NCBI GenBank assembly: GCA_048213135.1
Contig: PS015053.1
Span: 100,526-135,754, forward strand
DNA length: 35,229 nucleotides
DNA from: Reclinomonas americana ATCC 50394
Taxonomy: Eukaryota
Direction: 5' to 3'
Part shown: piece after piece, positions 5,301 to 34,800 of the stretch
Position numbering within the stretch: position 1 is the stretch's first letter
How the letters are laid out: every line of letters starts with the position of its first letter
Notes under the pieces: model-generated
The model's database searches: none
The model's input: only the letters and a program-made list of their open reading frames with translations
Told to the model about the DNA's origin: nothing
Translations under genes and position numbers: made by a program

Positions 5301-8300
5301 AAGCAGCGAGACGGAGAACAAAATCACAGTGAGCATAAAAGAGGACAGTGACGCCACTGAGAAAAAAGACATAATACAGCGCGGGCCGACATGACAAAAC
5401 AAACACAATCAAAAGTAAAGCAAGAATGAGAATAACAGGCACTGAAACACGAGAAGATAAATACGGACGAAACTCTCAGACAATAGAGAAAAAGGACTAT
5501 GAACTGGGTCGACATCAAACTCACGTCCAGCATCTTCTCCATATCTTTCCCTTCTCTCTCCCTTCCCCTCCCTCACCCTGAACACCAAATCCGCCTTGAA
5601 CCGCTGCTGCAACTGATCATTGGCCCCCTCCGCCTCCTCCGCCTCCGAACCCATACTCGACGACGAAATGGCCGGCCGCATACCCCCCGGTCCCACCCGC
5701 GGAGCCAGGTGCATGCTGGGTGCGGCATTGGCCGCTCGAGCCGCCGCCGTGGGGTCGCCACCGGGGTCCTCCTTGAGCGCGAATTTGACGGCGTGCTCGC
5801 GAAAGTAGTCAAAGGCGCGCTCGTCGCGCAGGTCCAGCAGGACTTCCAGGGCCTCGAGGTACTGCGATGGGGAAAGGAGGAGAGGGGAGAAGGGATGAGG
5901 GGGAAAGGGAGAGGTGATGAGGGAAGAGAGCAGTAGGAAGAAGGGATGACGGAGTTGCGCTCAAACACGGCGACAGACTCCGTCAAGAAGCGACCTGGAT
6001 ACCAGCGGAGAGCGGATGGAACAGGGGATGCAACAGAAGGACAGCAAACAAAATGACAACAGAGATGAGTGGGAAGAGAGAGCGAGTGAATGCTGGCATG
6101 AGAAGGGCACCAATTGAGGGCAACTGAGAACAGAGTAAAAAGAGGTCAAAGAAAAAACAAATTTGCTAGCTGTCAGTCTCATATTCTCGCATTCTCTCTC
6201 CTTGCGTCTCTCTCTTCCTCTCATCTCAAAGCTTCTCTCATTCTCTCGTCCTCACATGTTGCAGTCTTTCTTCCCTTTTCTCTCCACTCACTGCTCCGCT
6301 TATTCTCCGCATTTAATCATCTCGCTGACTCGTTCTCTCATTCCTTGCATCTCACCATCATCAAACTGTCTCTCACTCGCATTCTCTCATCTCGACACTC
6401 CTCTCATTACTCACATCCTCACATTGCAGTATTTCGTTCTTCCTTGTTCTCTCCACTCTGAGTCCCTCTTATTTTCCCTCATTTCCTCATCTCGCTTTCT
6501 CTCTCTCCCATCCTCTTTCATTGTCTCACATCTTCTCTCACCACCTCCTATCTCTCAGTTCTCCTCAACTCGTTGTCTCTCTCGTTCTCTCTCCTCCTCT
6601 CATGCCCTCCCATTTCGCAGTCTCTCATCTTGTCTCTCTGATTCTCAGCTCTCTCGCTGCCTCTCCCACCCTCGCACCTCGCTGTCTCTCTCATTCTCCT
6701 TTTCCCAATTCTCTCTCCCCCTCCCCCTCTCCCTTTCCCAATTCTCTCTCCCTTCTCCCTTCCCAAAATGCACCTTGTGACTGTAATCCAACAATCTATG
6801 CAACGCCCGCAGCAAATCCACAATCTGCCGCACTTGCTCCGTCGTCGGCACCGGCAACCCGAGCTGCGCCAGCGACTCGGCCGACAAGCTCCCCAGATTC
6901 TGTGCCGCCGACGGCGTGCGCGGGAGTCGCGGCGCAAGTGGTGTGCGCGCCGGTCCACCGCCGAGAGGTGACGCCACGGCGCGGCGAGTGACCGACGGTG
7001 TCATGTTGGCCTCGCGCAGCACTTCGTAGATGCCGGAGCGGGCGCTGTGTGGAGTTGAGTGAGAGAGAGAGGATGTAAAAGGAGAGGAGAGAGATGACTG
7101 GACGCACGGTGTGGCCACGACAATGCGCGGCGAGAAACTGGACATGTTGAGGCCGCGCGTGACCTCCAGGAGCTCCTCGCGCACACGCTTGGCGAGTTGT
7201 CCTGCGACGTCGAGCAAATCAGCATCACCACTCTCTGTACAAAAAAGGGAGAGACGCAACTGGTGGAGTAATAAATGGGCCAGCGGGTGACGCAGCCGAG
7301 AAAGGTGCGGTAGTCCTTGCGCTTCAAAAACGTCTCCAGGACGCGAAAGTACACGTCGCCTTTGAGAAGCGAGCGGCTGTTGAAGGGGAGGTATTCCTCT
7401 AGAAGCGGGAGTTGGTCGCACTGCGCAAAAGAGGGAAGGGAGAGGGAGGAGAGAGATTGAGAAAGTAAGAAGAAGAAGAAGAACAAGAAGAACAAGAAGA
7501 AGAAGAAGAAGAACAAGAAGAAGAAGAAGAAGAAGAAGAAGAAGAAGAAGAGGAGGAGGAGGGGAAGACCAAGAACAAGATGAAAAGGGAGAAGAAGAAG
7601 AAGAGGAAGAAGAACAAGAACAAGAACAAGAAGAATAAGTTGAAGAAGAATAAGGAGAAGAAGAGGAAGAAGAGCAAGAACAAGAACAAGNNNNNNNNNN
7701 NNNNNNNNNNNNNNNNNNNNNNNNNNNNNNNNNNNNNNNNNNNNNNNNNNNNNNNNNNNNNNNNNNNNNNNNNNNNNNNNNNNNNNNNNNNNNNNNNNNN
7801 NNNNNNNNNNNNNNNNNNNNNNNNNNNNNNNNNNNNNNNNNNNNNNNNNNNNNNNNNNNNNNNNNNNNNNNNNNNNNNNNNNNNNNNNNNNNNNNNNNNN
7901 NNNNNNNNNNNNNNNNNNNNNNNNNNNNNNNNNNNNNNNNNNNNNNNNNNNNNNNNNNNNNNNNNNNNNNNNNNNNNNNNNNNNNNNNNNNNNNNNNNNN
8001 NNNNNNNNNNNNNNNNNNNNNNNNNNNNNNNNNNNNNNNNNNNNNNNNNNNNNNNNNNNNNNNNNNNNNNNNNNNNNNNNNNNNNNNNNNNNNNNNNNNN
8101 NNNNNNNNNNNNNNNNNNNNNNNNNNNNNNNNNNNNNNNNNNNNNNNNNNNNNNNNNNNNNNNNNNNNNNNNNNNNNNNNNNNNNNNNNNNNNNNNNNNN
8201 NNNNNNNNNNNNNNNNNNNNNNNNNNNNNNNNNNNNNNNNNNNNNNNNNNNNNNNNNNNNNNNNNNNNNNNNNNNNNNNNNNNNNNNNNNNNNNNNNNNN

Positions 8301-11300
8301 NNNNNNNNNNNNNNNNNNNNNNNNNNNNNNNNNNNNNNNNNNNNNNNNNNNNNNNNNNNNNNNNNNNNNNNNNNNNNNNNNNNNNNNNNNNNNNNNNNNN
8401 NNNNNNNNNNNNNNNNNNNNNNNNNNNNNNNNNNNNNNNNNNNNNNNNNNNGGAGAGGAAGAAGAAGAAGAAGAAGAAGAAGGAGGGGAAGAAGAAGAGG
8501 AAGAAGAAGGAGGAGGAGAAGAAGAAGAAGAAGAACGAGAACAAGAAAAAGAAGAAGGAGGAGGAGAAGGAAGAAGAAGAACAAGCAGAGTAGCAGAGGA
8601 AGAAGAAGAACAAGAATAAGAAGAAGAAGAAGAAGAAGAAGAAGGCGAAGACGAAGAAGAGGAGGAGAGAGAGACTGCATTGTTGAGATAACGAGAGGAA
8701 TGTGTTGCTGCCTACTGTAAGAGAGATTGACAATGTGAGAAGCGCGGGAAGCTGGTCACATGTGCGAGACAGAAGGAACAAGGAGAAAAACAGAGCGCCT
8801 AGTCACCATTCTTGTTTCTGTGCTCATTCTTTCTGTACTCTGTTTCCTCTCTCAGTGAAGCTGTTGATCCACAGAGCGTTTCTTCTTCTTCTTCTTCTTA
8901 AAAAAGCGAGTTGAAGCACATTTAGATCGACATAGACTCTCTTTTTCTCCAAGGAAGGCATCAAGCCATCCTCAGTTTGAATCAATGCAAACTCTATTGC
9001 TTATCCGTCCCACACTAAGCCCACGCTCATTAATTCAATCTCTTATCCTCTTGTCCTTCATCGTGTTGTCTCACATGGACAAGGCAAGACGCACACCATT
9101 CTCCTCTCTCCTTCCCACCCTTTCCCTCATCTCCCACGCACTCATAAGTTCATTCTCTTCCTCTCGTCCTTCTTCTTGCTGTCTCTCACGAACAAGCAGC
9201 ATGCAAACCACTCTCGTCCTCCTTCCCACTCTTTCCCTATTCTGCCTTCCCAATCCTTTCTCGTCGCGCCCACCCTTTCCCATCTCTCCCACCCTTTCCA
9301 CATCCCCACCCTTTCCCTTCTCCCCCCCTTTTCACGAAACTTCCGCTAATCTCTCCGCAAACACCGCCCAGTAATCGCGCGTGGCACGCGGCAGAATAAA
9401 CTCGCTGTACACCGTAATGGCCGTGCGGAACTGCTTGCGCTCCCTCCACAAGTGCGCGGCGTAGTAGTCGGCGATCTCGACCACAGATTTCACTCTATAT
9501 GCAAGTGAGTCACGAGTCACCTTTCCTTTTTTTGTCCATCAACCGCGCAACTGATTCGCTGTCTTGGCCGCCTGCGTGGCGTCCGTAAATCTCCCCTCCA
9601 TGACAAACGAGAGCACCCTGTGATCCCATCCCCCGTGTCAATGCCAGTGAGAGCCTCTCAGAATGCAGTCTGCGATGACGCACCTCTCGGCCGTGTTCAG
9701 TGGTCTCAGCAGGTACACCTCCGAGTCGAGCACGAAATACACCACCGGCACGTCGCGCGTGTTGGTGGAGGTCGAGTGGCGCCCTGAGTAACCGGGTCGA
9801 CTGATGGAGCCGAAGGAGCCGAGTGGTTGCATGCCGTCGAGGAGGGGGGACTCCTGAGAGGAGGGTGAGACGCCAAAGGGGGAAGGGGAGAAAGGAAAAA
9901 GCAAAGGAGGAAGAAAAGGGGAGAAGAAAAGGGTGGAAGAAAGGGAGGCTCTCCTCTTTTCCTATTGCCTCCTTTCTCCTTACTTATTCCCTCCCCCACC
10001 CATCCCTCTCTCGCAACTTCCATTATTGTCGACGCATGCATATCAAACGTCGTGAATGTGCCGAAAAATCTGCAGCACCTTCAGTCGCCCGCACACCCCC
10101 TTCACTCCTTCCATGCCCACTCACCTCCTCGCCGTTGAGTGCGGGAACGGCAGCACTTGCTGAAACTCAAAATCGGGCGCCGCCGAGTACAGCGACACCA
10201 CGGGAATGGAGTGCTGGCGCGTGTCGGAGGCGCGCAGCTCGAGCGGGACAAAGAACTGCACGAGCTGGCTTGTGGCCGGCACCTCCTCGGTGACCACCAC
10301 GACCTTGTCGTCGATCTCGGCCACGGCGACGACGGGGGCGGTGTGGTCGAGGACGCTGTTGATTTGGATGGCGGCACTGCGGGGAAAAGGGAAATAGACG
10401 AAGGGTAAAGGGAAGTGAGATTGCATGGAAGGGAGAGGGGCGAAAATGGATTGCGTGTGAAATAACCATCAAATGGGACAGAAAGACACCGCAAATGGGG
10501 ACAGGAGTCCAGACAGAGATGGGCTCCAGCCACAGCACACGAAGCACGCAAAACGAAAGAGCACACCAGCAGGAAGGAGAGGGCACATGTGAGAGGACAG
10601 AGTAAGAAGGTGTGGTAGAATAAGAAAGAGATTCCGCGTGTCTGTGAGCGAGAGAGTGACGGGCCGGAATGAGAACCTCTCTCTCTCTCACGCACACACT
10701 CTCCCTCCCTCTCTCTCCCCCTCCCTCTCTCTCCCTCTATCCCTCCCTTCATCCTTTCCCATACACGCAACGAATCCTGCATCAATTTCCTCCCGTCAAT
10801 GACGAACAGACTGCACCCGCTCGTCACATAGATGCTGGCGTTGCCGAGGAAGAAGTTGACGGCTGCCACAGAGAGATGAGTCATCGTAGCCAACAAATAC
10901 CTCCACATCCGACGCAACGAATATCGGGTCGATCGTAAAAGCGCACGAGAATCTGCTGCCGTCGGAGGCTGTACACCACGACCTCCTCGTTGTTGGTCAG
11001 CACGAAACGGTCGCTGCGATCACAACAAGAGTCAGTTTCTCCTCCCGATGCACTCTTTGTTTGACGGCGCGCAACTTCAAGTGCACGATTTTGGTCACGG
11101 GAAGGTGCGGATTCTGCAGCTTCACCACCACCGACGCGCTGTGGCCGATGATCAGGCGGATGCCGCGCTTCACCACGCGACCGGCCACGCCGCAGTACAC
11201 CACGCCCACATTCTCGCCGAGGGGTTCCGTGACGCAGAGGCTGTGGACTGTGTGGATGGTGAGGGCAGGGAGGAGGAGGAAGGAGAGCGAAAGGGAGAGC

Positions 11301-12970
11301 AGGCACGGAACTGGGCGTCTCGAGGGATTTGCCAAAGGCCAGAACAGAGTCGTCGAGGAAGTCGTATACCATGATGCGGCCGTCCTGGCCGCCGCTGACG
11401 ACGGCGGTGTCTTGCAGGCAGATGGAGAGGACGGCGCCCTGTAAAAAGGGAAAGGGGGTGTAAGGGAAAGGGGGACAAGGGGGAAGGAGGAGGAAGAAGG
11501 GGATGTGGGGTGAAAGGCAAGACGAAGAGGATCATGGAGGAGGACGACATGGAGAGGAGAAGAAGCACTCTGCCATTCTTTCGCTTCTGTTTGCTCTGTC
11601 TCTCATGCATCTGCGTCACTCGACTTATTTGTTTCGCGCTCTCTCTCCCTAGAATGTACAGGAGGAAAAAGAGAAGAGCAACAGCAAGAAGAGAGCACAT
11701 CTTCCATCCCTCACTCTCTCCGAGAAGGAAACTATGAACACGATGACGGAGGAAGAGGAACAGACTACAGCCCCATTTCACTCTCGCTCTCTCTCTCTCT
11801 TTTGTAGACGAAGAAGAGGTACGCGAAGAAGGAAGGAGGAAGAGGAAGAAGGAGAAGGAGAGCAAGAACAAGAAGAAGAGAGGAGGAGGAGGAGGAGGAA
11901 GAAGAGGGAGAAGAAGGAGGAGGAGGAGAAGGAGAAGAAGAAGAAGAAGAACACGAAGAACAAGAAAAGGAGGAGGAAGAAGAAGAACAAGAAGAAGAAG
12001 AATGGAGAAGATGAGAAGACAGAAGTCTCTCTCTCCCTTGCTCTCTCTCTCTTGTGAAGAAGAACGAGAAGATGAAACGACGACGGAGGCTGAGACTACA
12101 GCCTCTCACTCTCTCTTGAAGAAGAAGAAGAGGGAAAGGATGAGGGACGAGAGGAGAAGAAGAAGAGGAACACTGTCTCTCTGAGACTACAGCCTCTCAC
12201 TCTCTCTTGAAGAAGAAGAAGAGGGAAAGGATGAGGGACGAGAGGAGAAGAAGAAGAGGAACACTGTCTCTCTTTCTCTCTCTCAAGAAGAAGAACAAGA
12301 ACAAGAAGAACGGAGAGGATGAGAAGACAGCAGTCTCTCTCTCCCTCTCTCTCTCTCTCTTCTGAAGAAGAACGAGAAGATGAAAACGACGACGGAGACC
12401 GAGACTACAGCCTCTCTCTCTCTTGAAGAACAAGAAGAGGGAAAGGGCGAGGGACGAGAAGAGGAGAAGAAGCTCTCTCAAGAAGAAGAAGAAGAACAAC
12501 AACAACAACAAGAACGGAGACGATGAGAAGACAGCAGTCTCTCCCTCCCTCTCCGTCTCTCTCTCTCTCTCTCTCTTCTGAAGAATAACGAGAAGATGAA
12601 ACGATGGCGGAGACTGGGACTGCAGCCTCCCTCCCTCTCTCTCTCTCTCTATCTTGAAGAACAAGAAGANNNNNNNNNNNNNNNNNNNNNNNNNNNNNNN
12701 NNNNNNNNNNNNNNNNNNNNNNNNNNNNNNNNNNNNNNNNNNNNNNNNNNNNNNNNNNNNNNNNNNNNNNNNNNNNNNNNNNNNNNNNNNNNNNNNNNNN
12801 NNNNNNNNNNNNNNNNNNNNNNNNNNNNNNNNNNNNNNNNNNNNNNNNNNNNNNNNNNNNNNNNNNNNNNNNNNNNNNNNNNNNNNNNNNNNNNNATTTC
12901 CCTCGGCTGTTCCACTGGCACACACACGTCGCGACGCGCAAAACGCTTGCGCACTGGCCAGACTCTGAGG
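2316..12970 (-). CDS. VPS41: Vacuolar protein sorting 41 (HOPS subunit), divergent; 5' exon(s) probably in gaps
   Basis: Phase-consistent exons: 12970-12896 (into gap), 11438-11312, 11247-11076, 11013-10919, 10862-10772, 10376-10125, 10069-10018, 9853-9684, 9617-9552, 9494-9341, 7420-7261, 7201-7108, 7044-6774, 5861-5577, 4410-3933, 2640-2557, 2488-2316 (TAG). The N-terminus is WD40-like (CASGTAEGN; GAVLSICLQDTAVVSGGQDGRIMVYDF). It is followed by Vps41-type helical motifs in the expected order: QLPLLEEYLP..VYFRVLETFL..FLGCVTRWPIYY; YLEALEVLLDLRDERAFDYFREH; FLFLARVTRTDPQRSSRYHADLI. Confidence 0.85.
4816..4931. repeat. 60-bp direct tandem duplication in a Vps41 intron
   Basis: AGACAGAGTCAGAGACAAGAGAGATAGATAGAGAGAAAGATAACGTGGCGGAGACA occurs twice with period 60. 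Confidence 0.9.
7467..8670. repeat. (GAA/GAG/CAA)n trinucleotide tract flanking a gap, in a Vps41 intron
   Basis: Seen directly; it is the source of the poly-F/L/K/S pseudo-ORFs. Confidence 0.9.
11760..12669. repeat. Intronic degenerate minisatellite with GAGACTACAGCC-containing units and GAA runs
   Basis: Near-identical ~90-bp copies start at about 12092 and 12183. Related units recur near 11760, 12400 and 12610. Confidence 0.8.
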
Positions 12971-13608
12971 CTGAAAAGAGAGAGAAACAAGAGAGAGAGA
13001 GTGAGTGAGAGAGAGAGAGTGTGTGTGTGAGGGAGAGGGGGAGAGGGAAGGGTGGGGTTGTGAGAGAGAGAGGGAGAGAGAGTGAGTGTGTGTGTATGTG
13101 TGAGAGAGAGAGAGAGAGTGAGAGAGAGAAAGGGTGCGACATGTCTCACAGAGAGACAACAGAGAGCGCACAGTGTGTGAGAGTGTGTGGAGAGGGAGTG
13201 AGAGGGGAGAGTGTGTGAGAGTGAGAGGGAGAGTGTGTGAGTGTGTGTGAGAGTGTGTGTGTCACCTAATACATCTTTCAACTTTGAATGTGTTTGTGTG
13301 TGAGAGTGTGTGGGAGTGTGTGTGTGAGAGAGAGAGTGTGTGTGTTGTGTGTGTGTGTGAGAGAGTGAGTGAGTGAGTGTGTGTGTGAGAGTGTGAGTGT
13401 GTCAACTCATGCATCTCTTATCTATCAATGTGTTTGTGTGAAAGTGTGTGTGTGAGAGAGAGAGAGAGTGAGAGAGAGAGTGAGCGTGTGTGCGTATGTG
13501 TGAGAGTGTGAGTTGACTGCAAACACTCTCACATTCACTCACTCACTCACTCCTTTCTCACACACTCTCTCTCACTCACTGCACTTCTCTCTTATCATCT
13601 CTTGCACT

Positions 13609-13646
<38 letters not shown>

Positions 13647-15109: not shown

Positions 15110-16384
15110 ATGCGCGGAAACCTGCAACGCCGCGCCGGCACCGCCAAGTGGATCGCCGATCCCGACGACGATCTCCACCAATCAACTCCCCCATCTCCCC
15201 CCTCTGCACCCTCTCCACCCTCTCCCTCTTCCACCACCTCCGGCAATCCGACTGCCGAGTTCCGCGACTGGTTCCGCGCGCACGAGATGGGCAACTACTG
15301 GGGCGGCGACTGGCACCTCGCGCTGACCTCGGTGGTGTGCCTGACGGTGGCCGTGGCGTCGCTGGTGTTTGGCGTGCGCTGGGCCACGCTGCGGTGGTGG
15401 GAGGTGTTGACGGTGCCAGTGAGCTTTGTGTATGCAAAGTTACGCACTCGCTCTCTCTCTCTCTCACACACACACGTTTCAGCCTCATCTCACTTATCCT
15501 TCTCCCTTTCCTCGACTTCCCCCTCCTCACAGTGCCATCGAATACTTTGGCCACAAGGGCCCGCTGCACCACCGCGGGGTGGCCGCCTTTGCCTACCGCC
15601 GCCACACGCAAATCCATCACCGCTACTTCAACCACACCAACATGCAGTGCGACTCGTGGGCCCTGGACGCCAAGGCGATTTTGTTCCCGCCGACCATGAC
15701 GCTCTTTTTCGTGGTGCTGGCGATGCCGATGGCGTGGGTAGGTGAGTGGGGCGGAAATGGGGAAGGGGGGAAAAGGAGGGGAAGGGGGAGGGAGGGAGAG
15801 AAGGGGAAAGACTTGCAAAGGGACTGAAGAAGACGAACGAACAGCGAGAAGGCGATTTTGAGCGTGCTCACCACTTCTCCCTCTCACAGTGTCACTGCTG
15901 TTCACGACCAACTGCGCGTTCCTCTGCACGGCCACGTGCATGGTGTACTATGTGAATTAGTTGCGCACGTCCTCGCCCCCTCTTACCCCCATTGATGCTC
16001 ACACCTCGCGGCAGTGAATTCCTCCATCTGGCGTGTCACATGCTGCCGCTGGACAAGCCGCAAACGTCGCTGCCGATGCGCCTGTTGGCCGCCATTGCGC
16101 AGCACCACCGCATCCACCATCACAAGGAGCACGCGCTGCAGGGCAACTGGAACATCACATTCCCGCTCTTTGATTATCTGATGGGGTTGCGTTGGTGGAA
16201 TGATGTGGTGGGTGGTGGTGGTGGTGGCGAGTGGACTCACTGGTTGGTGCGCAGAACCAAGATCGACCCGGCGACGGTGAAGTTGCGGGGGTTTTGTATG
16301 CTCTTGTACTCGACGGTCAGACTCACTCCTGTTCTCTGTCGCAGGCCGGAGCTGAAGCCGACGACGAAGAAGGCGACAAAGTAA
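15110..16384 (+). CDS. Fatty-acid hydroxylase / sterol desaturase superfamily membrane di-metal enzyme, bacterial-type subfamily
   Basis: Exons 15110-15438, 15533-15741, 15890-15959, 16015-16281 and 16345-16384 (TAA). His boxes: EYFGHKGPLH, RRHTQIHHRYF, YYVNYEFLHLACH and QHHRIHH, followed by NWNITFPLFDYLMG. Several hydrophobic TM segments. Confidence 0.88.
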
Positions 16385-17499
16385 ACGCCTGCAGATGCCG
16401 TCCACTGCGCAATGCAAGATGGGGAGAAGGGGAGAGAGGGAGGGGGGGGGGGAGGGGAGAGAGACGCGTAGTGTTGCTAGTAACTACAACACACGACGAC
16501 GACGCGTACGTACGACGTAGTACGACTANNNNNNNNNNNNNNNNNNNNTGCGCGGAGAGGAGAGGAGAGGAGAGGGGGGGGGGGGGAAGGAAAAGAAGAG
16601 GCCAGAGTTTTGCTGATCTAAACATCAACACAGCTGCACGATGATCACCATCTTGAATGAGCACCAGAAACTCAGACGTTCACGGAAAAAAGCGAGAAAA
16701 AGTCGAGATGGCCGATGCTGGCGTTTCTGCAAGAGAAACCACGGCTCGTGATAAGCATGGATTTGACTCTGAATTCCAAAAAAGGAATTGAGATAGCAAG
16801 AGCGGTGTTGGTGTCAGAACACATAAGGAAACCCAACAATGCCAGGCAATGTGCGAGCAAGTCCGGGAAGGAGCTGAGGTGCAGTTGAGTGCACGATGTT
16901 GCTCTATTGACAAGAAGACGAGATGACTGGAGACCGATTTGCGCAAGGTTCTTCATGCTCACGACTCCTGCGGGTAGTGTAATCACAAGCACTACTCTCA
17001 CCTGCACTCACGATCACTGGCCCAAGCCGGTCGTGGATTCTCTTGCAGAAAGGCTTGAGAGCTCTGCAAGCTGGTGCTCATCGCAATCCCGTTGTACTCG
17101 AGCTCGTTACGCAATCTTTTCACGCGCACTCAATCAAATGCATCCTCTGCGCTTCTGTAGACCTGCCAAAGTGAAAACGCGACAAACCTTACACAAAGTC
17201 CGTCGATTGACTCACTCACACATTCACTCACTCACGGAAGAGCGTGGGCTTTGTTGATGGAAGTGGATGCGTCTGCAGGTGAGAGAGAGAGAGAGAGAGA
17301 GAGAGTGAGTGAGAGAGTGTGCCTCTGAGTGTGTGTGTGTGTGTGTTTCTCTCTCTCTGTGTGTGTTGCATGTGGTGTGCATGTGTGTGGCTGTGTGCAA
17401 GGCTGTGCTTGTGTGTATATGTGTGTGAGAGAGAGTGTTTGTGTGCGTTGTTACATTGAGTGAGAGTGTGCCTCTCTTCTCTCTCACACGCACACTGCG

Positions 17500-18803: not shown

Positions 18804-21385
18804 AGTGACCCCCAGCCCGCCACGCCCATGCAAGAAGACGACTCTGCTGCGCCCATGCCTGCCTCTTCTTCCGCGCCAGATACCATTGCAAGCGGCGACT
18901 CAATGGGACCTCCGCCGGTCGTCGTGTCTCCACCATCACTTTGTTGCGTAATAGCAATTGCCTTTCGATGGCAGTGCACGCTGTCTGCTTTTACTTTCTC
19001 GTTTTCCCTTCATTATGTGCCTTCACTTGCTGACGTTCACTCAGCCTTCTCATTCGTTCCACTCTCTCTGCTCTCCATCTCCTCGTGATCGCATGCATCG
19101 CAAGCGCTTATCTTCCCTCATATTCAATTTCCCTTTATCTATTCTCGCACGCAGCACGTATTTGCTTGTTGTCGTGTGACTTGCATCCGTGCGTCGCTCT
19201 CTCATACACGTTGATTTTCCGTCCTCTCCCTTTCCCCCTTCCCCCTCACCCACCCTTTCCCCCTTCCCCCTTCCCTCCTTCCCCCTCACCCACCCTTTCC
19301 CCTTCGCNNNNNNNNNNNNNNNNNNNNNNNNNNNNNNNNNNNNNNNNNNNNNNNNNNNNNNNNNNNNNNNNNNNNNNNNNNNNNNNNNNNNNNNNNNNNN
19401 NNNNNNNNNNNNNNNNNNNNNNNNNNNNNNNNNNNNNNNNNNNNNNNNNNNNNNNNNNNNNNNNNNNNNNNNNNNNNNNNNNNNNNNNNNNNNNNNNNNN
19501 NNNNNNNNNNNNNNNNNNNNNNNNNNNNNNNNNNNNNNNNNNNNNNNNNNNNNNNNNNNNNNNNNNNNNNNNNNNNNNNNNNNNNNNNNNNNNNNNNNNN
19601 NNNNNNNNNNNNNNNNNNNNNNNNNNNNNNNNNNNNNNNNNNNNNNNNNNNNNNNNNNNNNNNNNNNNNNNNNNNNNNNNNNNNNNNNNNNNNNNNNNNN
19701 NNNNNNNNNNNNNNNNNNNNNNNNNNNNNNNNNNNNNNNNNNNNNNNNNNNNNNNNNNNNNNNNNNNNNNNNNNNNNNNNNNNNNNNNNNNNNNNNNNNN
19801 NNNNNNNNNNNNNNNNNNNNNNNNNNNNNNNNNNNNNNNNNNNNNNNNNNNNNNNNNNNNNNNNNNNNNNNNNNNNNNNNNNNNNNNNNNNNGGCTTGCT
19901 CTTTTCCGGCGTGTCACCGTCACTCGGCTGCTCCTTTTGCTTTTGCTGCTGTCGCTTGGCGACGGCCGCGGCGGCGGCGGCCACGGCGGCAGCACGGCGC
20001 GCGCTGCGGCGGATTTCGGCGTCGGCGGATGAAGGTGGGGCGGCGGCGGCGGCGGCAACAGAGGGGGAGGGAGAAGGAGAAGAAGAAGAAGAGGACGTCT
20101 CTGTGGTGGTGGCCGCGGTGGAGGAGGGCGAGAGGGGGATGATCGGCACCGTGTCGACGGGGGCGGCATTGCGAGGCGGGCGTCGGCGGGTGGCCAGGCT
20201 GGGGATGTTGAGCACTNNNNNNNNNNNNNNNNNNNNNNNNNNNNNNNNNNNNNNNNNNNNNNNNNNNNNNNNNNNNNNNNNNNNNNNNNNNNNNNNNNNN
20301 NNNNNNNNNNNNNNNNNNNNNNNNNNNNNNNNNNNNNNNNNNNNNNNNNNNNNNNNNNNNNNNNNNNNNNNNNNNNNNNNNNNNNNNNNNNNNNNNNNNN
20401 NNNNNNNNNNNNNNNNNNNNNNNNNNNNNNNNNNNNNNNNNNNNNNNNNNNNNNNNNNNNNNNNNNNNNNNNNNNNNNNNNNNNNNNNNNNNNNNNNNNN
20501 NNNNNNNNNNNNNNNNTGCTGCAGCCGCAGCAACGCCTACTCCGCCACCGCCACCACCTGCTGCTGCTGCCCCCACGATCCGCACAGTGTCGCTGTCGAG
20601 CGCGGCGCTGACGACGGGCGGGCGACGGCAGCCGCCCAAATTGCCGACTAGTGCGACGACCACCACCACCACGCCCACATCCGCACAGCAGCCGCGCTTG
20701 CGTGTCCCGCCACCGCCGCCACCCACACCGGCCAGTCCCGTGCCGCACCCTGCGTCCGCGACGGGAGCAGCAGGACCGTTGCGCCCGCCAGTGGCCCGCC
20801 GCCCATCGTCGCCACCCGTGAAGGTGTGCCGCCTGCTCAACGCCTCGGACTACTACTCGCTGCTGCCGCCTGCGGAGGAGATGCCGCAAGAGGCCGTGCA
20901 GCTGCCGGTGCTGCAGCCGTCGTATCACTTTTTGCCGCAGCACACACCGCGTCCGGGCCAATCGCAGAAGCGATTGACTGCCGCACTCAGCTACGAGTCC
21001 CCGCTTCCACCGCCGGCGCCACCACCACCTGCTGCGGCGGCACCGCACGCGACACGCGCCTCGGCACGCAAGCGACGGCGCGATGCCGAGTCGGACGACG
21101 ATTCGTACCACGACGAGCCGCCAGAGTGGTCGCGGTCGTCGCGCGCCACCTCCACACCCATGACGCCGAGTGCGCGCTCACAGTCGGGCGCTCTTTCGGT
21201 GCCCGACTGGCTCGCCTCGCCCATCCCATCCCTGTCGTCGTCGNNNNNNNNNNNNNNNNNNNNNNNNNNNNNNNNNNNNNNNNNNNNNNNNNNNNNNNNN
21301 NNNNNNNNNNNNNNNNNNNNNNNNNNNNNNNNNNNNNNNNNNNNNNNNNNNNNNNNNNNNNNNNNNNNNNNNNNNNNNNNNNNNN

Positions 21386-22227: not shown

Positions 22228-23183
22228 ACCTCTGGTTCTCTTCTCGGGTGGAGGATGAGTGAGAGATAAGAAGAATGATGCTCTGAGAGAGAGAGGTCCT
22301 CCCTCTGCCTCGTTCTCTTCCTCTCTGTCTCTGTCTCTCTTTCTCTGTCTCTCTGTCTCTCTTTCTCTGCCTCGTTCTCTGTCTCTCTGTCTCTTTCTCT
22401 GTTTCTCTGTCTCTCTCGCTCTCTCTTTGTCGCATTACGCATGTCCCTTGAATGCATTCGCATTCCCTGCTATTCCCCGAGTCCCACTCACCCCTCATCT
22501 CGCCTTGCAGCGACGTGCGCTTCAGTGTGGCGGTCGACCGGCACGCAGAGCACGTGGTGGGAGTGATGCCGCCCAAGCCGCCACCGACGGGCGAGGAGGA
22601 GGCGGTGGATTTTGCGGCGTTTAGGACGAGGGGGGAGAGGAGGAAGGATGGGAGGGGGAGGCTAATGACGATGCTGGAGGGTTCGTAATGGGGGAAGGGA
22701 GGGGAAGGGAGGGGAAGGGGAAGGGATAGGGAAAGGAAGGGGATAGAAAGGGGAAGGGAAACGAAGGGGAAAGGATGCGGAAAGGGATAGAAAGGGGAAG
22801 GGATGTGAAAAGAGAAATCGAGTTGGAAGGGTGCAGGGAGGAAAGAGTTGTGTGTGGGAAGGGATGTGGAAAGGGAAATCGAGTTGGAAAGGTGAAGGGA
22901 AGAAAGAGTTGTGTGTGAGAGAGTGAGATGGAATGAGAGATATTGTTGCCAAAGCAGTTTTGCAAGAAGAGGGCGTTGTGAGTTGCTAGTCTGTGCGTCT
23001 TCTTCACGGTCCTGAGAAGTTGCGTACATTGAGCTGGACGTACAGATTTTGTGTGTGCATGTGGCAGGGACAAGAAATGTCACGCCTTGATAATAGGACT
23101 GAAGCGCTGAGGGGCATTGTGTGTGAGGGAGACAGAACATTCGTGCCTCGGGGAGTGATTGGAGTTCTCTTTGATTTTTGTGC

Positions 23184-23214
<31 letters not shown>

Positions 23215-23770: not shown

Positions 23771-23819
<49 letters not shown>

Positions 23820-24415: not shown

Positions 24416-24525
24416 GTTGGTGGGGAGAAGGGAGAATGAGGGAGGGTGAGGGGAAAGGGGAGAGGGGAGAGGGGAGAGAGAAGAAGACTGAAAGCTTTTA
24501 CATGGAGGAGTGGAGATGCGAAGGC

Positions 24526-24604
<79 letters not shown>

Positions 24605-24731
24605 TANNNNNNNNNNNNNNNNNNNNNNNNNNNNNNNNNNNNNNNNNNNNNNNNNNNNNNNNNNNNNNNNNNNNNNNNNNNNNNNNNNNNNNNNNNNNNN
24701 NNNNNNNNNNNNNNNNNNNNNNNNNNNNNNN

Positions 24732-26674
24732 CTGTCTGTGGAAGGGGAATAAGGGAAAGGGTGAAAGGGGAAGGGAAACAGGGGAAGGGGGACTGAAGGG
24801 AAGGAGAACAAGGGGGTGCGGGGAAGGGAGAAGAGAGAGAGAGAGAGAGAGAAAGACAGAGTCGAAAAGGAGAACAGTGAGAGAGGGTGGGAGAGAGAAA
24901 GGACAGTGGAGTGCGACAGGTAAGCCGACAACAAAAAAGACTGACAAAGACAAGAATCGAGAAGAGATAAAGAGAGAAGGAAGAGGAGTGGGCGCGACAC
25001 ACGTACTGAGAACGACATTGAGTGACAATGATGAGAGGCGAAGGATAAGCCGGCGATCGGGGGAGAGGGAAAGGAGGAAGATCAGGCGTGACGAGAGAAA
25101 CGAGAAGACAGGAGTCAAACGAGAGAGAGAGGAAGAAAAGAGGGGCGACGGTTGTGCTGGCAATCAGCAAGTGAACAAACAAGCGAAGGAGAGCACAACA
25201 GAAAGAAGGAAAGACAAAAAGAACGAGAGAGGAAAGAAAGAAACGAAGACGGATGCCAAGGAGAAGCAGAAAGACAGCAAGAAAGAAACAATCCACAGGT
25301 TCACCAGGGGCCGGAAACCCCAACGGAGAGCGAGTGAAGAGGGGAGAATGACCGGCGAGCGCTCGACAACGCAACGAGAGGGGTAGGATGAATCGCTGAT
25401 CACGAGCAACGTCCAGCAGGTGCCACGAGAAGCCGAGAGGGAACCAGAAGGCTTCGATGTTGGAGGTGCGCTTGAACATTGGGGATTCCTCGTCGACGGT
25501 GATGGTTTCAGCGTCGATGTTGTCGCTGCGGGAAGGGAGGGAAGAGAGAGAGAGAGAGGATGAGTAAGAGACAGCAAGGAAAATAAGAGGTGACGGACAG
25601 AGTGGGCTTACGAACAAGCAGTATGATAGACGTAGAGTACTATCCGTGCCATACTACTATCCATTCTTCTTGTAAAACATCATCAACTTCTCACTCTCTC
25701 AGTGTCTCTCTTCTCGACTATGCATGTTCCGCGACTCAACCAATCTACGATCAAGAGCAAAGCAAAAATCAATGCTGGTCCTCCTCTTTCTCCTCCCACC
25801 GCGTGTCGATAGAGGTGAATGTTGAGAGAAGGAGAGAAACGAGCCGATATACATTCAAAGGGAAAGAGGGATGACAAAGAGTCGGCAAGAGAGAGAGGGA
25901 GAGAGAGAGACAAGAAAGAGAGAGAGAGAGAGGAAGGAAATGAAGGCAGAGAGAATGAACAGGTAGAACCGCAGACACGCTGGGACGAGGAAATCAAGCG
26001 AAAACGAGTGAGTAAGAGAATGCAAAGAGAGAGAGAGAAAAAGCAATGTATCGTGTGTGGCGCGCAGAGACGCACAGGCGGAGAGGGGAAGCGCGAAGAA
26101 TGAATGAGACGAGAAAAAGAGATGGCAAGGCAGAGAGCAGAGAGAGAGAGAGAGAGAGAGAGAGCAGCACGCAGAGACGCACAGGCAGAGTGTGGAAGCG
26201 AAGAAACGATGAGAGGAGAAATAAGATGGCAAGGCAGAGAGGCAGACAATGACCGGATAAAGCGTGAGAAAAGAAAGACACGCAGACAGAGAGTAGAGTC
26301 GCGCGAAAATGAGTGAGAGCGAGAGAAAGAGAGGGCAATGCAAAAGAGGGAGCAACGCAGGAAGACAGAGAGCAAATGAATGAGTCGAGCACACAAATGA
26401 GTGAGAACGAGAGAGAGCGACTGCGAAGGCAGGATATGGAGACAGTTTCAGACAAAGAGCGAGAGTTGACAAACGAGTGAGGACAAGAGAGAGAGAGAGA
26501 GAGCGCGTTGGCAATGCAGAGAGGCAGCGGCCCATGCAGACAGAGAGCAAATGAAAGAGTCAAGCAGACAGATGAGTGAGAAGGAAAGAGAGCAACTGCG
26601 AAGGCAGGGAGACAGAGACAGTTGCAGACAAAGAGCAAGGGTCAAGCTGACAAACGAGTGAGGACGAAAGAGAG

Positions 26675-26705
<31 letters not shown>

Positions 26706-28570: not shown

Positions 28571-28888
28571 TGGCGTGGGGGTGTGGGAGAGGGTGTGTGA
28601 GTGGGACAGAGTGCGAAGTTGGGGTTGTTGTATCGATCGGGGATTGCAAAGGCATCTCGTTGTGTGGAGATGAGCGTTTGTTTGCGCGTCGCACAATTTG
28701 CGTTTTACTGCTAGAGAAGGTCGATGGATGGCGCTGGCCGTCACCGAAAAAACAAAGCAACTTCGGAGCAGATAGTCAAGTGTCACGATCGGATCCGTCT
28801 GTCTTGTTTGTCTGGTTGTTCCGTGGTGTGTTGACAGCTTACTTCTCGCACTGTGTGAGAAACATCAGCGCTTGCGCAACCCTCGAGG

Positions 28889-31800
28889 ATGTGCGGCGTT
28901 GTGTCGGGAATCCTGGCAAAGTGCGTGTGTGATCTGTGCCGTATGTATTGTCGTCAGATAAAACTTCTCACACTCACGCACACTCTGTGATTTTGTGTGT
29001 GGCTGTGCTTGTGCACTGGCAGTGTCTCGTTTGCTCGAGAAAGAGCATCGGATGCTGCGTGGAATGGCGACATGCATGCACTGTTGGATTTGGTTTGTCA
29101 TCTCCAGTGCGAGTTTATCAAAAGCGGTCGCACCGCTTTTTTCATCGCCGCTGGCAAAGGCGATCTCGATACGTTGACGCGTTTGTGGACGGAGAGCGGT
29201 GTCGGCCCACGACTTGCCATGATTCGCAGCGGCAGCGACTGGACGCCTCTAATGGCGGCTGCCGAGAAAGGGCACCTGCATGTGGTGCAGTGGTTGCTGG
29301 CCGATGAGCAACGATGCCCAGCGGAGATGGTACGCGTGGTCAGCAATCACACATCCGTGGAGCCGCAATCCACCGCGCTGCATTTTGCGGCCGCGCAAGG
29401 CCACGAAGCCATTGTGCGACTGTTGGCTCAGTCTTACCCTGAACTTATTCCGATGGTCAACCATAAGGGCCGGACGGCGGCCCAATGGGCGCGTGAAAAG
29501 GGGAAGCAAGACGTGGCAAACTTGCTTGACTGCGATCTGCCGTCACGGCCATCACGACCGCAACCGCCCGCCACGGAGCCATCACAATCACCGCCACCCG
29601 TGCCTCCATCTCCGCCAGCAAGGTATTGAGGGATCTATTCATATATTGTCAGGCCTGCTGCTTCCCGCTTACTTATCTGTATGATGCCGATGGTTGCCGA
29701 TAGTATTCCGTCAAAGAAGGCGTGGGAGCTGGCGAAGGATGGTGATGTTGAAGCGTTGCGCGCGTTGGTGGCCCGCGACGGTGCGTCCACCCTACTGGAG
29801 GTCGATAACCGTGAGAATCGCTGCTCCACGTTTTTTATTGCCGCTCGGAAAGGCCACCTACCCGTTCTGGAGTATTTGTGGTCTGAAAGCGGTGTTGGAA
29901 CACAACTCGCCAAGATGCTCACCAAAAATGGCTGGTCACCTTTGATGACGGCATGTTTCAACGGACATCTTGCAGTTGTGGAATGGTTGCTGGCTGATGA
30001 GCTTCGATGTTCCCCGGAGACGGCATGCGCAGTGCCAGCTGCAGATGACAACAGTCGTTGGACAGTGCTCCATTATGCCGCCTCCAGAGGCCACAGAGAC
30101 GTTGTTCAACTGCTTGCCAATCGCTTTGCCCAGCTTGTTCCCATGGTCGACGACAGTGGTAGGACAGCCGCTCAAGTTGCGCGTGAACGCAGTCAACCTG
30201 CGGTTGCCGTGTTGCTCGAAGGCCTTGCCACACATCCACCAGCCCTTGGTTTGGATGCGGTGAGGCGCAAGTTTCTTGTCCCATGTCTTTTCTTACGTGA
30301 ATTGTTCAAATTCGCCGTGTGTCAACCGTGCGCAGGCTGTCGATATGGACGATGCGATGGCGAGGCGCCTCGCTGAACGTGATGCGATTGTCGCGCAGCT
30401 TCAGCGCGATTTCGCTGCAGTGCAGCAGGAGCGCGAGCAACAGCTGCATGAGTGGGAGAGGCAGCGATTAGAGCTTGAGGTCGATGTGGTTCAGCTTGAG
30501 CGAGCGAACACTGAGCTTCGACAACAACTCAACGCCCAGCTGTACGAGGTGGACGAACTTGGACAGCGAGCTCAGCAGCAGATTGCAGAACTTCGGCAAT
30601 GTGTCGCAGACGAGCGGCAACGGGTCATTCATCTGCAGCAAGCAGTTGCGGAGAGGACAGTCCAACTGGAGCAATCGATATCAAACGCAGAATTCATCGA
30701 ATGCCAACAAGCTCTGGCACGAGAGCGGCAATACGTGGCTCAACTTGAGCGAGCAATCGCAGATGTGCGGCAACTGAGTGCCGATGAGCAGCAGCGATTC
30801 AACCAACTTCGCCATCTCCACGCGGATGGACAGCGGCAAGCAGTTCAACTGGAGGACAAGCTGGCGCAATACGCAGCCCTGCTGACCAACGCTGAGCGCG
30901 AGAAGGGCGCACTTGCCACTGTACTGACTACAGTGCGCCAGCAGCTGGAAGACGAAAAAGCCGCTAAAGGTTTGTTGCTATTATCATACATGGTTTGTCG
31001 GTCGCTGCTCCACACGCGAATTCCAATTTCTCGCGGTCTCCCTTTCTCTCTCTCTCTCTCTCTCCTCCCCCCCCCCTCTCCGTACGTCGTACGTACGTAC
31101 CGTACCGTACCGTACCGTACCGGTACCGGTACCGTACCGTACCGTACCGGTACCGTACCGTACGTACCGTACNNNNNNNNNNNNNNNNNNNNNNNNNNNN
31201 NNNNNNNNNNNNNNNNNNNNNNNNNNNNNNNNNNNNNNNNNNNNNNNNNNNNNNNNNNNNNNNNNNNNNNNNNNNNNNNNNNNNNNNNNNNNNNNNNNNN
31301 NNNNNNNNNNNNNNNNNNNNNNNNNNNNNNNNNNNNNNNNNNNNNNNNNNNNNNNNNNNNNNNNNNNNNNNNNNNNNNNNNNNNNNNNNNNNNNNNNNNN
31401 NNNNNNNNNNNNNNNNNNNNNNNNNNNNNNNNNNNNNNNNNNNNNNNNNNNNNNNNNNNNNNNNNNNNNNNNNNNNNNNNNNNNNNNNNNNNNNNNNNNN
31501 NNNNNNNNNNNNNNNNNNNNNNNNNNNNNNNNNNNNNNNNNNNNNNNNNNNNNNNNNNNNNNNNNNNNNNNNNNNNNNNNNNNNNNNNNNNNNNNNNNNN
31601 NNNNNNNNNNNNNNNNNNNNNNNNNNNNNNNNNNNNNNNNNNNNNNNNNNNNNNNNNNNNNNNNNNNNNNNNNNNNNNNNNNNNNNNNNNNNNNNNNNNN
31701 NNNNNNNNNNNNNNNNNNNNNNNNNNNNNNNNNNNNNNNNNNNNNNNNNNNNNNNNNNNNNNNNNNNNNNNNNNNNNNNNNNNNNNNNNNNNNNNNNNNN

Positions 31801-34800
31801 NNNNNNNNNNNNNNNNNNNNNNNNNNNNNNNNNNNNNNNNNNNNNNNNNNNNNNNNNNNNNNNNNNNNNNNNNNNNNNNNNNNNNNNNNNNNNNNNNNNN
31901 NNNNNNNNNNNNNNNNNNNNNNNNNNNNNNNNNNNNNNNNNNNNNNNNNNNNNGGTTTTGGTTCCGGTTCGGTCGTCGTCCTCCACCACGACGTACTACT
32001 ACTTCTCGCGTCTCTCTCTCTCTCTCTCTCTCTCTCCTCCCCTCCCCCCCCCCCCCCCCCTCCCCTCCTCTCTCTCTTCTTGTTCCCTAATCTCTGTCGA
32101 CATATGTCTCATTTCAAAAAACTGCACTCCAGATGATGCTATTGCTGCGTGTGCCCGACTCTCGCGGCAGCTTGCAGTCGCCAGTTGCGAGTCCACTAGA
32201 ACCAGTTGTCAACGGCACTCTGCTTTCGCATGCCTTGCAGCCGCCCAGCGCGCCTCCGACACGCTCACAGCCGATCAGGATCATGAGCTGCCATCCAGTA
32301 GCACCAAGGCCGACCATCTGCAACAAGAATTGGCTGACGACGAGCGTGCTACTGATCTCGCTGCGAAGCTTCGAGCGCAGCTTTCCGTTGCTGTGATGGA
32401 ATGCGACAAGTTGCGACACCGACTCTCCGAGATGGAGTGCCATCTGCGTGGTCTATTCCGCAAGGATTTTCTAAGGTATTCATCAAGCAAAGTCTATGTT
32501 CAATTCTAGTGTTTGTATTTCTTACTCTCGCCGGACTCACAGCGATCGGCGTCGAATTTGGTTGCTTAGCGAAGTCGTACACGAAATCATTCCCCGCGCA
32601 CTAGGCGCCCTCTTGCGACAACTCGTCGCTGAGTTCTTCCCTGGAGAATTCGACATAGAGCAACTCTGCCTTCCCTCTCCACCACAGAGGTACCGAAATA
32701 TTGACTGATTGCCTGCACGTACTGTGTTTACTGTACTCAGCCTGTCTCGCAGATATTGTAGGATGACTCTTGACAAGCGCGGCAATATTCGGATGCGTTC
32801 GGTCGAGCTTTTCCCTTCCAACTACGACGCGATTCGCAAGTTCAAGCAAACTGATAAGACAGCAGACATGGACGTGACTCTTGTGAGCACTCTGCTGTTG
32901 TACATCACCTTTGTGCCTGTCGCCGCGTGTCGTGAGGACGACTTGCTGGAGACTGCCGTCCGTCTTGATCTCGCCACCAGCGAGGATCGGCTGGCTGTGC
33001 CGCTGCTCGCCGACGTCTCCAAGGTATGCTTTCCCCCTACATTGACACCCGTTACTTGAGGTTGCCTAGTTGTTGTCGTCGTATCACAGTTCTCACTTCA
33101 AGGGCTTTGCAGATACAAGCCGTGAAACATTTGCGCGATGTGCGCCATCGCCTGTCCCACTTGGCCCGTGTTTCCTCCCTCGATGATCTGGAGTATTTGA
33201 ACGTCATGCGCCTGGTCCGCGACTCGCTGGATATGCTGTTCCCCAGCGGCCATGGCAGTATTCGTCGGTTGTTCGAAGCATATGACAGTTGCGCACACGT
33301 ATTTCCTGCTCAATTCTTGGGGATACTGCCTTATTTGTCGACGCAGTTGTCAGCAGCATTGATGTGACGGCTGAGATGCTAAAGGCAAAAGCCGAGAGAT
33401 TCGAAATTCATGCGCCTGTTGTGCGTTTTTCTGACCTGGTGGTTTCAAAACAGCTTGCCGTCGGTGAGTTCTTTTTTTCGCACAAATGTCGGGTGTCTTG
33501 TGGTGTGTGCGTCGAGCAGTTGCTGAAAGCAACTGTACAGTTGTCTTCCGCGCCACTCTCAATCTTGGCGGTGTGTCGCGGGTCGTCGCATACAAACGAT
33601 ACATGGTCCGATCTCCGAAACCAGAAGAGGTTCTCCGAACGCAACTAGTGTGTGACAACGAACGCTCGCTACTGGTGCAACTCGAGTTGCGTGCTCCCCC
33701 GTCTGTATGTGCGGCTTATCTGCCACTCATGCATGTTCATGCACACAGTCACACACACATTGTGAAACTTCTAGCTGTGTGCAACGATGATCCAAGTGGT
33801 CTGGGCCTGGTTCTTGAATACGTGGGTCAGGAAGGTGAAGAAGGGCATGCCGAGACGTTGCACGACCTGGTGAAGGACGACCGCGTTGCAACTGAACATC
33901 TGCTCGGTCTTCTCGAACACGTGGCAACAGCGGTGGTGTACACGCATTCACGGCGAGTTATTCATCGCGATCTCAAACCAGAAAGTTGCGTGGCATGCGT
34001 GCTCTGTTGGTGAATACGTGATACAATGGAGATCTAGATTGAGAAGGGGCACGGTGAAGAGTTAATGGTCACGAATTCGAAAGATTATACACCGTCGTCG
34101 AAACTCATGCTGTTCATGTGTATGTCATCGTTGGTGTTTCCAGACGTTTTGATCAGCGATGACCGACTCACTGCAAAACTGTGCGACTTCGGGGAGGCTA
34201 GAAATCATGGCACTCTCGGCAAGATGCAGTCGAACCTCGGAACACCTGCATATGCTGCACCCGAACTCATTCTGGGCCAAGAGGTGTGTGTGCGCGCACG
34301 CGCCGCAGCGTCGTTGACTGACTGTGTCGGTTGAACGGGTTTCCTCATGCTCTCACTGCCACTCGCAGTACGACGAACGTGCTGATGTTTATGGACTCGG
34401 CTCCCTGCTCTGGTTCATCGCCACTCGCCGCGAACCGTTCTCAGGAGTCGCACTGTTGGACATAAAGGAGAAGATTAGAGACAAAGTTCCGCCGGGCAAT
34501 CTGGACGACGCCGCCGTGCGGGCAGCCGTTCCTGAAGACATTCGCAATCTGATTCGACAGTGCTGGGTTGCGTGTGGTAGAAACGGAGGAAAGACACGGA
34601 GGAAATGAGGTATGCTCATCATGTGATGTATCGATGCAGAGGCCTCAAGCGACGCGAGTATCAGCATCGTACGTTCTCAACGAATTGAGGCGATTGGCGA
34701 CAGTGGCGGCACCTCCAGCCGCAGTTGCTGTTGGGGCGCCTGCTGTTGGCGCAGTCAATGCGATAGGTGCGGAAGGATCAGTTGTTATCGTTGAGCCGCA

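Follow-up and report, generated by a model that had tools for sequence, protein, structure and literature searches.

Can the introns of a single gene be defined by two kinds of 5′ splice site, one of them cut a base away from where pairing with its guide RNA would place it? This question is raised by a stretch of 35,229 nucleotides (nt) of Reclinomonas americana ATCC 50394 DNA (GenBank assembly GCA_048213135.1, contig PS015053.1, positions 100,526 to 135,754 of the forward strand), referred to here as the window. An earlier note on this DNA listed 18 intron donors reading GTTNCG, mostly A/GTTGCG (the slash marks the exon–intron boundary), next to ordinary donors of the GTRAGT and GTGCGT kind. 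As described below, a GTTNCG donor class very probably exists: the sites are present, the exons that they terminate join in frame, homology pins down three of the junctions, and the last exon base switches from G to A. Whether such donors are read in a shifted register, and by which guide, is the matter that we then weigh.

The window is an intron-rich draft scaffold with many gaps (15 N runs, 5434 N in all). Three exon chains were built from the sequence and then checked by script. The minus-strand chain comprises 15 exons (11438 to 2557, 2551 nt), and the hydroxylase chain on the plus strand (15110–16383) has 875 nt in four exons, or 914 nt with a fifth; both are stop-free. On the plus strand, one open chain (29690–34942; at least 13 exons, 1059–1101 codons, about 3200 nt) runs through a second block of ankyrin repeats, about 210 residues of coiled coil and a kinase domain, so that what had been called the kinase gene is probably the 3′ portion of an ankyrin/coiled-coil/kinase gene. 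Exon by exon, Pfam matches were obtained for the kinase, the fatty-acid hydroxylase, the ankyrin repeats and the coiled coil. The labels Vps41 (the minus-strand gene), Sds3-like and glycosyltransferase found no per-exon Pfam support and are kept here as the names given in the earlier note.

GTTNCG was found on the expected strand at all 18 coordinates (14 GTTGCG, two GTTCCG or GTTTCG and one GTTACG), and the exon-final base was A in 13 cases, C in three, T in one and G in one, exactly as had been reported. At 14 of the 18 sites, marked as supported in Table 1, both flanking exons could be defined and join in frame, with no internal stop in the three chains. These sites account for 14 of the 28 introns placed in the chains, or for 16 of 30 when two in-frame candidates (16282 and 32184) are counted; the latter are probable introns because read-through across them scores intron-like, with negative bits per codon. 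The proposal that about 40% of introns carry such donors is reasonable once isolated ordinary donors elsewhere are added, yet the count of 44 donors behind it was not reproduced (28–30 introns placed). For the donor at 7260 the acceptor had to be corrected to 7202, giving an intron of 59 nt; a 26-nt intron (7260–7235) ending at a nearer AG was rejected. Assembly gaps follow two other sites, 18943 and 25375, and for this reason no downstream exon could be identified for them.

Homology fixes the junctions at 33985, 15960 and, narrowly, 15439. In the kinase gene the exon running to 33984 matches positions 57–127 of the Pkinase profile and the next exon continues from position 129, with the split codon A/AC supplying position 128. 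This codon encodes the Asn of HRDLKPEN, and solved kinases align to ...KPE as the final residue of the exon, which bears out the DLKPE/NVL junction read earlier. Two other cuts were rejected here: one placed a base further in (AG...CA ends), which replaces the catalytic-loop Asn of the kinase, and one at the GT five bases 3′ of the GTTGCG, by which both the Asn and the frame are lost. In the hydroxylase gene, a search of protein representatives with the 88-residue exon gave three weak matches (P0001–P0003, E from 1.4e-4 to 7e-4). Compared with these homologues, the YYVN/YEFLH junction at 15960 came out top of nine frame-preserving GT-AG pairs (scores of 155, 245 and 239 vs. at most 140, 219 and 215), with a gapless ...YYVN-Y-EFLH... 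alignment to all three. The YA/NAIEY junction at 15439 was also the best of its 14 frame-preserving pairs, but only by a slim margin and for one homologue (245 vs. 242, P0002). L/DHTHIV at 33686, which had likewise been considered forced, is consistent with the profile, as the downstream exon starts at Pkinase position 57; it is not fixed, since the upstream exon alone matches nothing. Homologue searches with an 83-residue exon of the minus-strand gene and a 78-residue kinase exon returned nothing at E ≤ 0.001, and no useful match came from solved-structure searches with the first kinase exon or with single exons of the minus-strand gene. One distant locus from a metagenome scan (L001, 37% identity) was not used.

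To what extent GTTNCG would be found at predicted exon ends by chance was evaluated with an exon finder whose chain scores come from codon usage, reading frame, acceptor context and fixed penalties, donors being unscored beyond the GT. The motif makes up 57 of the 3300 GT sites on both strands. In the first run it was placed at 11 of 125 predicted donors (binomial P = 1.2e-5), every one of them in one of the three genes and on its sense strand, with none in antisense shadow predictions; the training exons of the coding model in this run included those ending at GTTNCG sites. After retraining with a set (1230 codons, 12 introns) that touches no GTTNCG intron, the finder placed the motif at 6 of 119 donors (P = 0.018), and among donor hexamers GTTGCG ranked second to GTGAGT.

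Judged from their sequence, the GTTNCG introns look like true GT-AG introns that the major (U2-type) spliceosome would remove. All 16 of them, and all 12 others, start with GT and end with AG, and their removal leaves the chains open. A branch-like CTNAY motif occurs within the final 60 nt in 15/16 GTTNCG introns and 10/12 others, such motifs lying 11–45 nt from the 3′ end, and the pyrimidine fraction upstream of the acceptor is 0.55–0.91 and 0.32–0.91, respectively. Short introns have the same length mode of 55–66 nt in both classes, and acceptors are mostly CAG in both. The common length mode, CTNAY motifs and CAG acceptors suggest that one machinery serves both classes. U12-type introns come to mind, as they too form a second class whose donors are rigidly conserved, next to the degenerate donors of the major class. 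Unlike these, however, the GTTNCG introns have no RTATCC 5′ motif or TCCTTAAC-like branch motif (0/16, and 0/12 of the others) and share their 3′ ends with the ordinary class, and a U12-type assignment was rejected. An introner-like family was rejected as well. When 28 introns were compared all against all by blastn, there were 75 matches between different introns; the 25 listed are 13–26 nt long, mix the classes and do not extend along the intron length. The introns are rich in CT, GA and CA simple repeats. Pairing of the TGCG at the intron 5′ end with a CGCAG acceptor was discarded too, as CGCAG is found in 6/16 GTTNCG and 5/12 other introns, with no association.

The two classes differ clearly in the base preceding the cut. 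Position −1 is A in 11/14 GTTNCG donors vs. 0/16 other donors (Fisher P = 7e-6), and G in 1/14 vs. 14/16 (P = 2e-5); the latter value agrees with the earlier remark that ordinary donors mostly follow G. At position +7 the 18 listed sites have T in 11 cases, C in five, A in one and G in one, which mirrors the +6 T of ordinary donors. Ordinary donors take the forms GTGAGT or GTGAGG, GTGCGT, GTGTGT and a few weaker ones, about half of them being GTGAG-type. As strings, the classes differ at one position only (AG+GT+GCGT vs. AG+TT+GCGT). Preferences are thus found moved by one base, with −1 taking the role of −2 and +7 that of +6. The replacement of G by A at −1 favors a +1-shifted helix over a bulged U, because a bulge would keep G at −1. 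Apart from these sites, the window holds the plus-strand candidate donors GTTGGT (24416), GTTTGT (30970), GTTCGT (22681) and GTTAGT (17686), all of which follow G. If real, they would be +3 T donors in the ordinary register (G at +5, T at +6) and would sharpen the contrast with A/GTTNCG.

From these observations we infer a reading that joins a shifted register with a guide beyond textbook U1, and we give this combination a probability of about 0.5. A/GTTGCGY would be a discrete second donor class beside AG/GTGAGT and AG/GTGCGT. Both classes have the string AG..TGCGY, the second with T, not G, after the AG. As a result of this T, the sole available GU is the one that uses the G of the AG, and the cut would fall one base upstream of the place predicted by the helix. 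In the +1-shifted register the exon-final A would act as the −2 A, the +1 G as the −1 G, and the bases +4 to +7 (GCGY) as +3 to +6. The guide would not be textbook U1 alone; it may be the organism’s own U1, or one of several variants, pairing through G and C at the two positions that are pseudouridines in the standard RNA. Instead of a changed U1, another factor may read the GCG. A stronger version, in which roughly 40–50% of introns are spliced through this one-base-offset reading and served by a U1 (or a second variant) co-evolved to pair with GCG, is tentative and in our view rather doubtful. Should that version nevertheless apply, one guide would set two cut positions, according to whether G or T follows the AG, and this would be the first genome with a non-canonical U1 register as a main mode of splicing, an outcome that we likewise consider possible but not probable.

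The need for an altered guide comes from duplex energies calculated for the 5′ end of standard U1 (sequence from PMC4856993). The ordinary register was optimal in just 1/14 GTTNCG donors, and pairing in it was weak. Better pairing in the shifted register was not obtained with this RNA and appeared only with a hypothetical guide. In addition, there was no confirmed case in the window of a GTTGAG donor, the counterpart of GTGAG. Given that GTGAG-type sites account for about half of the ordinary donors, C at +5 looks specific and does not suggest a slide of the whole consensus; it should be added that the search pattern of the earlier note itself selected for C at +5. Thus, the notion that A/GTTGCG is the local AG/GTGCG slid by one base agrees with the −1 switch, the +7 pattern and the strings themselves, but not with standard U1, which pairs worse than at random GT sites, nor with the lack of GTTGAG. 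The weak pairing and the missing GTTGAG together make a plain slide insufficient and imply a changed or extra guide RNA; the altered U1/U6/U5 proposed in the earlier note would answer this deficit. We modeled a hypothetical guide complementary to the local AG/GTGCGT, which differs from standard U1 just at positions 5 and 6. With it, 13/16 GTTNCG donors are predicted to fold in the +1 shift (mean of −7.1 kcal/mol), compared with −5.1 kcal/mol (standard deviation 3.0) for random GT sites. Such a guide, itself hypothetical, would make the shift coherent.

Several observations weigh against the shifted reading. The dataset, also for the earlier claim of a major intron class, is this single 35-kb window, and all splice sites in it were derived from reading frames, homology and statistics. 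The independently trained run of the exon finder reached just modest significance. With standard U1, the best duplex had a mean of −1.9 kcal/mol for the 14 GTTNCG donors, −2.8 for 597 random GT sites and −7.5 for the other donors, and the shifted register was optimal in 0/14. Even with the model guide, donors and random sites lie less than one standard deviation apart, and three of the 14 donors, with C, T or A at +4, have no shifted fold with it. At least 12 sense-strand GTTNCG sites within exons seem unused, so that the motif alone is insufficient. One of them, at 30176, has the perfect consensus caa/GTTGCGCGT and lies in an ankyrin repeat kept coding by its paralogue. The model guide scores unused exonic GTTGCG sites about equally to the donors (e.g., −10.1 kcal/mol at 16186). 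The GTGAG-type half of the ordinary donors fits standard U1 better than the model guide. Finally, a candidate GC-AG intron on the minus strand (1049–1110, 62 nt, aaag/GCAAGT...CCGCAG) points to standard U1. This model alone joins both protein-like frames (...PLSAVFVNK/DGRDKTLFFQELW...), while a GT five bases downstream leads into an Arg/Pro-rich frame. From its textbook GCAAGT, a U1 of the standard type would seem to be present as well; the GTGAG-type donors and this GCAAGT would be compatible with a changed guide if several U1 variants coexist.

Other explanations of the class were also considered. In one, the ordinary register is kept: the additional U of GU[U]GCGU, at +2/+3, would be flipped out while U1, and later U6, pair with the remaining bases. 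GT-T-GCGT is indeed GTGCGT plus one T, registers with a bulge at +2/+3 are experimentally supported in humans (PMC4856993), and at the U6 stage some bulge would be required in every model, because GCGY sits one base further from the cut. Such a bulge, however, leaves the exon side in register, and G would be expected at −1 as in the ordinary donors, contrary to the 1/14 seen (A in 11/14); with standard U1, moreover, no bulge duplex was optimal among the 14 donors. We consider a bulged U unlikely, and to a similar extent a dedicated guide, i.e., a strongly diverged U1 variant or other small RNA that would match the whole A/GTTGCG heptamer in the ordinary register beside standard U1, as U11 does for U12-type introns. 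That the class is discrete and information-rich, with +5 C and +6 G invariant among placed donors, would suit such an RNA, as would the rank of GTTGCG among the donor-blind predictions and the inability of standard U1 to read GTTNCG donors. There may also be a precedent, as Physarum is said in 10.1101/2022.06.08.495308 to have both standard and modified U1 candidates. Yet a dedicated guide would need about five changes of the U1 5′ end vs. two in the shifted model, it leaves unexplained why the motif equals the local GTGCGT consensus plus one base, and U12-like 5′ and branch motifs are carried by 0/16 GTTNCG and 0/12 other introns.

It is improbable that the boundaries were simply misplaced, so that the real donors are nearby GT or non-GT sites and GTTNCG is a by-product of pattern-led annotation. 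Frame-preserving GT-AG alternatives are plentiful around most introns, the junctions were derived from sequence, the donor-blind finder took other donors at 10771, 9340 and 34567, and four of the 18 listed sites were not verified. Against this stand the homology-fixed junctions, the in-frame TAG at the 15960 donor, the loss of the catalytic-loop Asn that a one-base slide at 33985 would cause, and the enrichment in donor-blind predictions; nor would misplacing produce the switch at −1. An assembly artefact, with a spurious additional T in GTGCG, can hardly account for the class. The scaffold is a gap-rich draft, but errors would neither cluster at donors nor coincide with A for G at the exon end, and GTTGCG is found in well-conserved exon sequence too.

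Among known systems, the shifted reading is closest to the human 5′ splice sites used in a shifted register (Roca and Krainer 2009, summarized in Tan et al. 2016, PMC4856993). These sites have GU followed by U, pair poorly in the ordinary register, form a helix displaced by one base and are cut at the upstream GU, with the exon-final base acting as −2, all as proposed for the window. They differ in frequency, since the validated non-canonical registers jointly make up 1.5% of human 5′ splice sites, compared with 14–16 of the 28–30 introns placed here. They differ also in strength: the human shifted model site pairs contiguously with standard U1 at a predicted −6.5 kcal/mol vs. the mean of −1.9 kcal/mol obtained here with the same U1 end, and hence a different guide is needed. 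Human sites of the bulge +2/+3 register (68 predicted in Tan et al. 2016, Table 3, PMC4856993) resemble the GTTNCG donors in that a single additional U separates the GU from the paired bases +3 to +6; they differ in that G is predicted at −1, where A was found. Changes of U1 alongside donors are described in 10.1101/2022.06.08.495308 for Entamoeba (88–90% GUUUGU donors, co-evolved U1 ACAAAC) and Mastigamoeba (GUGCGC donors, U1 ACGUAC). These lineages show +3 U as a normal base, donors of the GTGCG type and U1 5′ ends changing together with the donors. In contrast to the window, they have one near-uniform consensus in the ordinary register, whereas here no such uniformity was found, and two classes occur within single genes, the second offset by one base. 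Searches of main full texts on splicing, the U1 shifted register and protist donors turned up no GTTGCG/GUUGCG donor class.

If about half of the introns use a discrete offset class while ordinary donors serve others of the same genes, the mechanism would be a known one in a new form. One U1 helix in one register is usually held to determine where the 5′ cut falls, and the human non-canonical registers (about 1.5% of sites) were proven site by site. If transcripts confirm the junctions, splice-site reading of a kind seldom used in humans would be commonplace here. If true, this would offer a natural system for how U1, U6 and U5 share the work of locating the splice site and setting the cut, for the slack in the active site between the cut and the U6 helix, and for the co-evolution of guide RNAs and splice sites. 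In practice, many gene models of this organism would come out wrong from gene finders trained on GTRAGT-type donors.

Table 1. Introns and candidate donor sites in the window. The strand is given in parentheses; exon bases are in lower case. "Runs" are the first and the retrained donor-blind runs of the exon finder.
Feature	Position	Length (nt)	Donor	Basis and remarks
GTTNCG intron, supported	11248–11311 (−)	64	ccca/GTTCCG	acceptor CACAG; joins exons 1 and 2 in frame; picked in both runs
GTTNCG intron, supported	11014–11075 (−)	62	tgaa/GTTGCG	in-frame join; picked in first run
GTTNCG intron, supported	10863–10918 (−)	56	attc/GTTGCG	in frame; picked in first run; alternative frame-compatible donor GTGGAG 12 nt downstream
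GTTNCG intron, supported	10377–10771 (−)	395	attc/GTTGCG	in-frame join; donor-blind run favored GTGCAG 45 nt upstream
GTTNCG intron, supported	9854–10017 (−)	164	ggaa/GTTGCG	in-frame join; picked in both runs
GTTNCG intron, supported	9495–9551 (−)	57	atca/GTTGCG	in-frame join; picked in first run
GTTNCG intron, supported	7421–9340 (−)	1920	ggaa/GTTTCG	includes N run 7691–8451; in frame; donor-blind run favored GTGTTT 24 nt upstream
GTTNCG intron, supported	7202–7260 (−)	59	acca/GTTGCG	in frame with acceptor at 7202; picked in both runs
GTTNCG intron, supported	15439–15532 (+)	94	caaa/GTTACG	hydroxylase gene; homology, slim margin; picked in both runs
GTTNCG intron, supported	15960–16014 (+)	55	atta/GTTGCG	in-frame TAG at donor; homology, ahead by 15–26 score units; picked in both runs
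Probable GTTNCG intron	16282–16344 (+)	63	tgaa/GTTGCG	in frame and stop-free, hence not forced; read-through −0.46 bits per codon vs. +0.65 in preceding exon
Probable GTTNCG intron	32184–32240 (+)	57	gcca/GTTGCG	absent from the earlier list; in frame, stop-free, chain open with or without its removal; read-through −0.45 vs. flanks +0.50 and +0.59 bits per codon
GTTNCG intron, supported	33288–33346 (+)	59	gaca/GTTGCG	kinase gene; in-frame join; picked in both runs
GTTNCG intron, supported	33686–33748 (+)	63	tcga/GTTGCG	in frame; profile start 57 downstream; picked in first run
GTTNCG intron, supported	33985–34143 (+)	159	gaaa/GTTGCG	Pkinase profile 57–127, 128, 129–171; picked in first run
GTTNCG intron, supported	34567–34639 (+)	73	ctgg/GTTGCG	sole listed site with G at −1; in frame to last exon; read-through stop after 13 codons; donor-blind run favored GTGGTA 7 nt downstream
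Candidate donor	18943–18948 (+)		GTTGCG	upstream frame open; no downstream exon found before N run 19308–19892
Doubtful donor	23019–23024 (+)		GTTGCG	requires a 29-nt micro-exon; upstream without open coding frame of 20 codons; simpler frame-compatible chain skips the site
Candidate donor	25370–25375 (−)		GTTGCG	upstream coding exon; frame still open beyond site; N run 24607–24731 after
Possible alternative donor	32410–32415 (+)		acaa/GTTGCG	alternative to weak GTATTC donor at 32476; either gives an open chain; intervening 69 nt −0.01 bits per codon
Ordinary intron	10070–10124 (−)	55	ggag/GTGAGT	
Ordinary intron	9618–9683 (−)	66	agag/GTGCGT	
Ordinary intron	7045–7107 (−)	63	cacc/GTGCGT	
Ordinary intron	5862–6773 (−)	912	caag/GTGCAT	
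Ordinary intron	4411–5576 (−)	1166	cagg/GTGAGG	
Ordinary intron	2641–3932 (−)	1292	ccat/GTGCGT	
Ordinary intron	15742–15889 (+)	148	gtag/GTGAGT	
Ordinary intron	30260–30335 (+)	76	tgcg/GTGAGG	
Ordinary intron	32690–32752 (+)	63	agag/GTACCG	
Ordinary intron	33024–33112 (+)	89	caag/GTATGC	
Ordinary intron	33464–33519 (+)	56	gtcg/GTGAGT	
Ordinary intron	34284–34368 (+)	85	agag/GTGTGT	Pkinase profile 171 and 174 across the junction

The window as a whole shows two compositions. Genes to the left of about 28 kb have exons rich in GC at third codon positions (GC3) and introns filled with CT, GA and CA microsatellites, and most assembly gaps are located there; the ankyrin-kinase gene is of moderate GC content and has plainer introns. 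GTTGCG donors are present in both parts. No small nuclear RNA genes were found in the window by Rfam at the gathering score, and at E ≤ 1 there were just sub-threshold low-complexity matches; no tRNA genes were found in it either.

Two tandem paralogous blocks of ankyrin repeats lie on the plus strand at 28991–29626 (Ank_2, E = 2e-19) and 29630–30373. The first ends at a weak gcaag/GTATTG site immediately before the second. Further downstream, the intron at 30970–32132 (plus strand) covers an N run and has the donor aaag/GTTTGT, with another GTTTGT 23 nt downstream. Short repeats of the CGTAC/GTACC type flank three N runs; they are located 3′ of the hydroxylase stop (16480–16528) and inside this long intron (31079–31172 and 31954–32010). 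On the minus strand, a telomere-like heptamer minisatellite of about 60 copies (GGGTTGA, GGGTCGA and GGGTTAA types) occupies 1797–2262. It sits 3′ of the stop of the last placeable coding-like exon of the minus-strand gene and contains three GTTGCG that are not donors.

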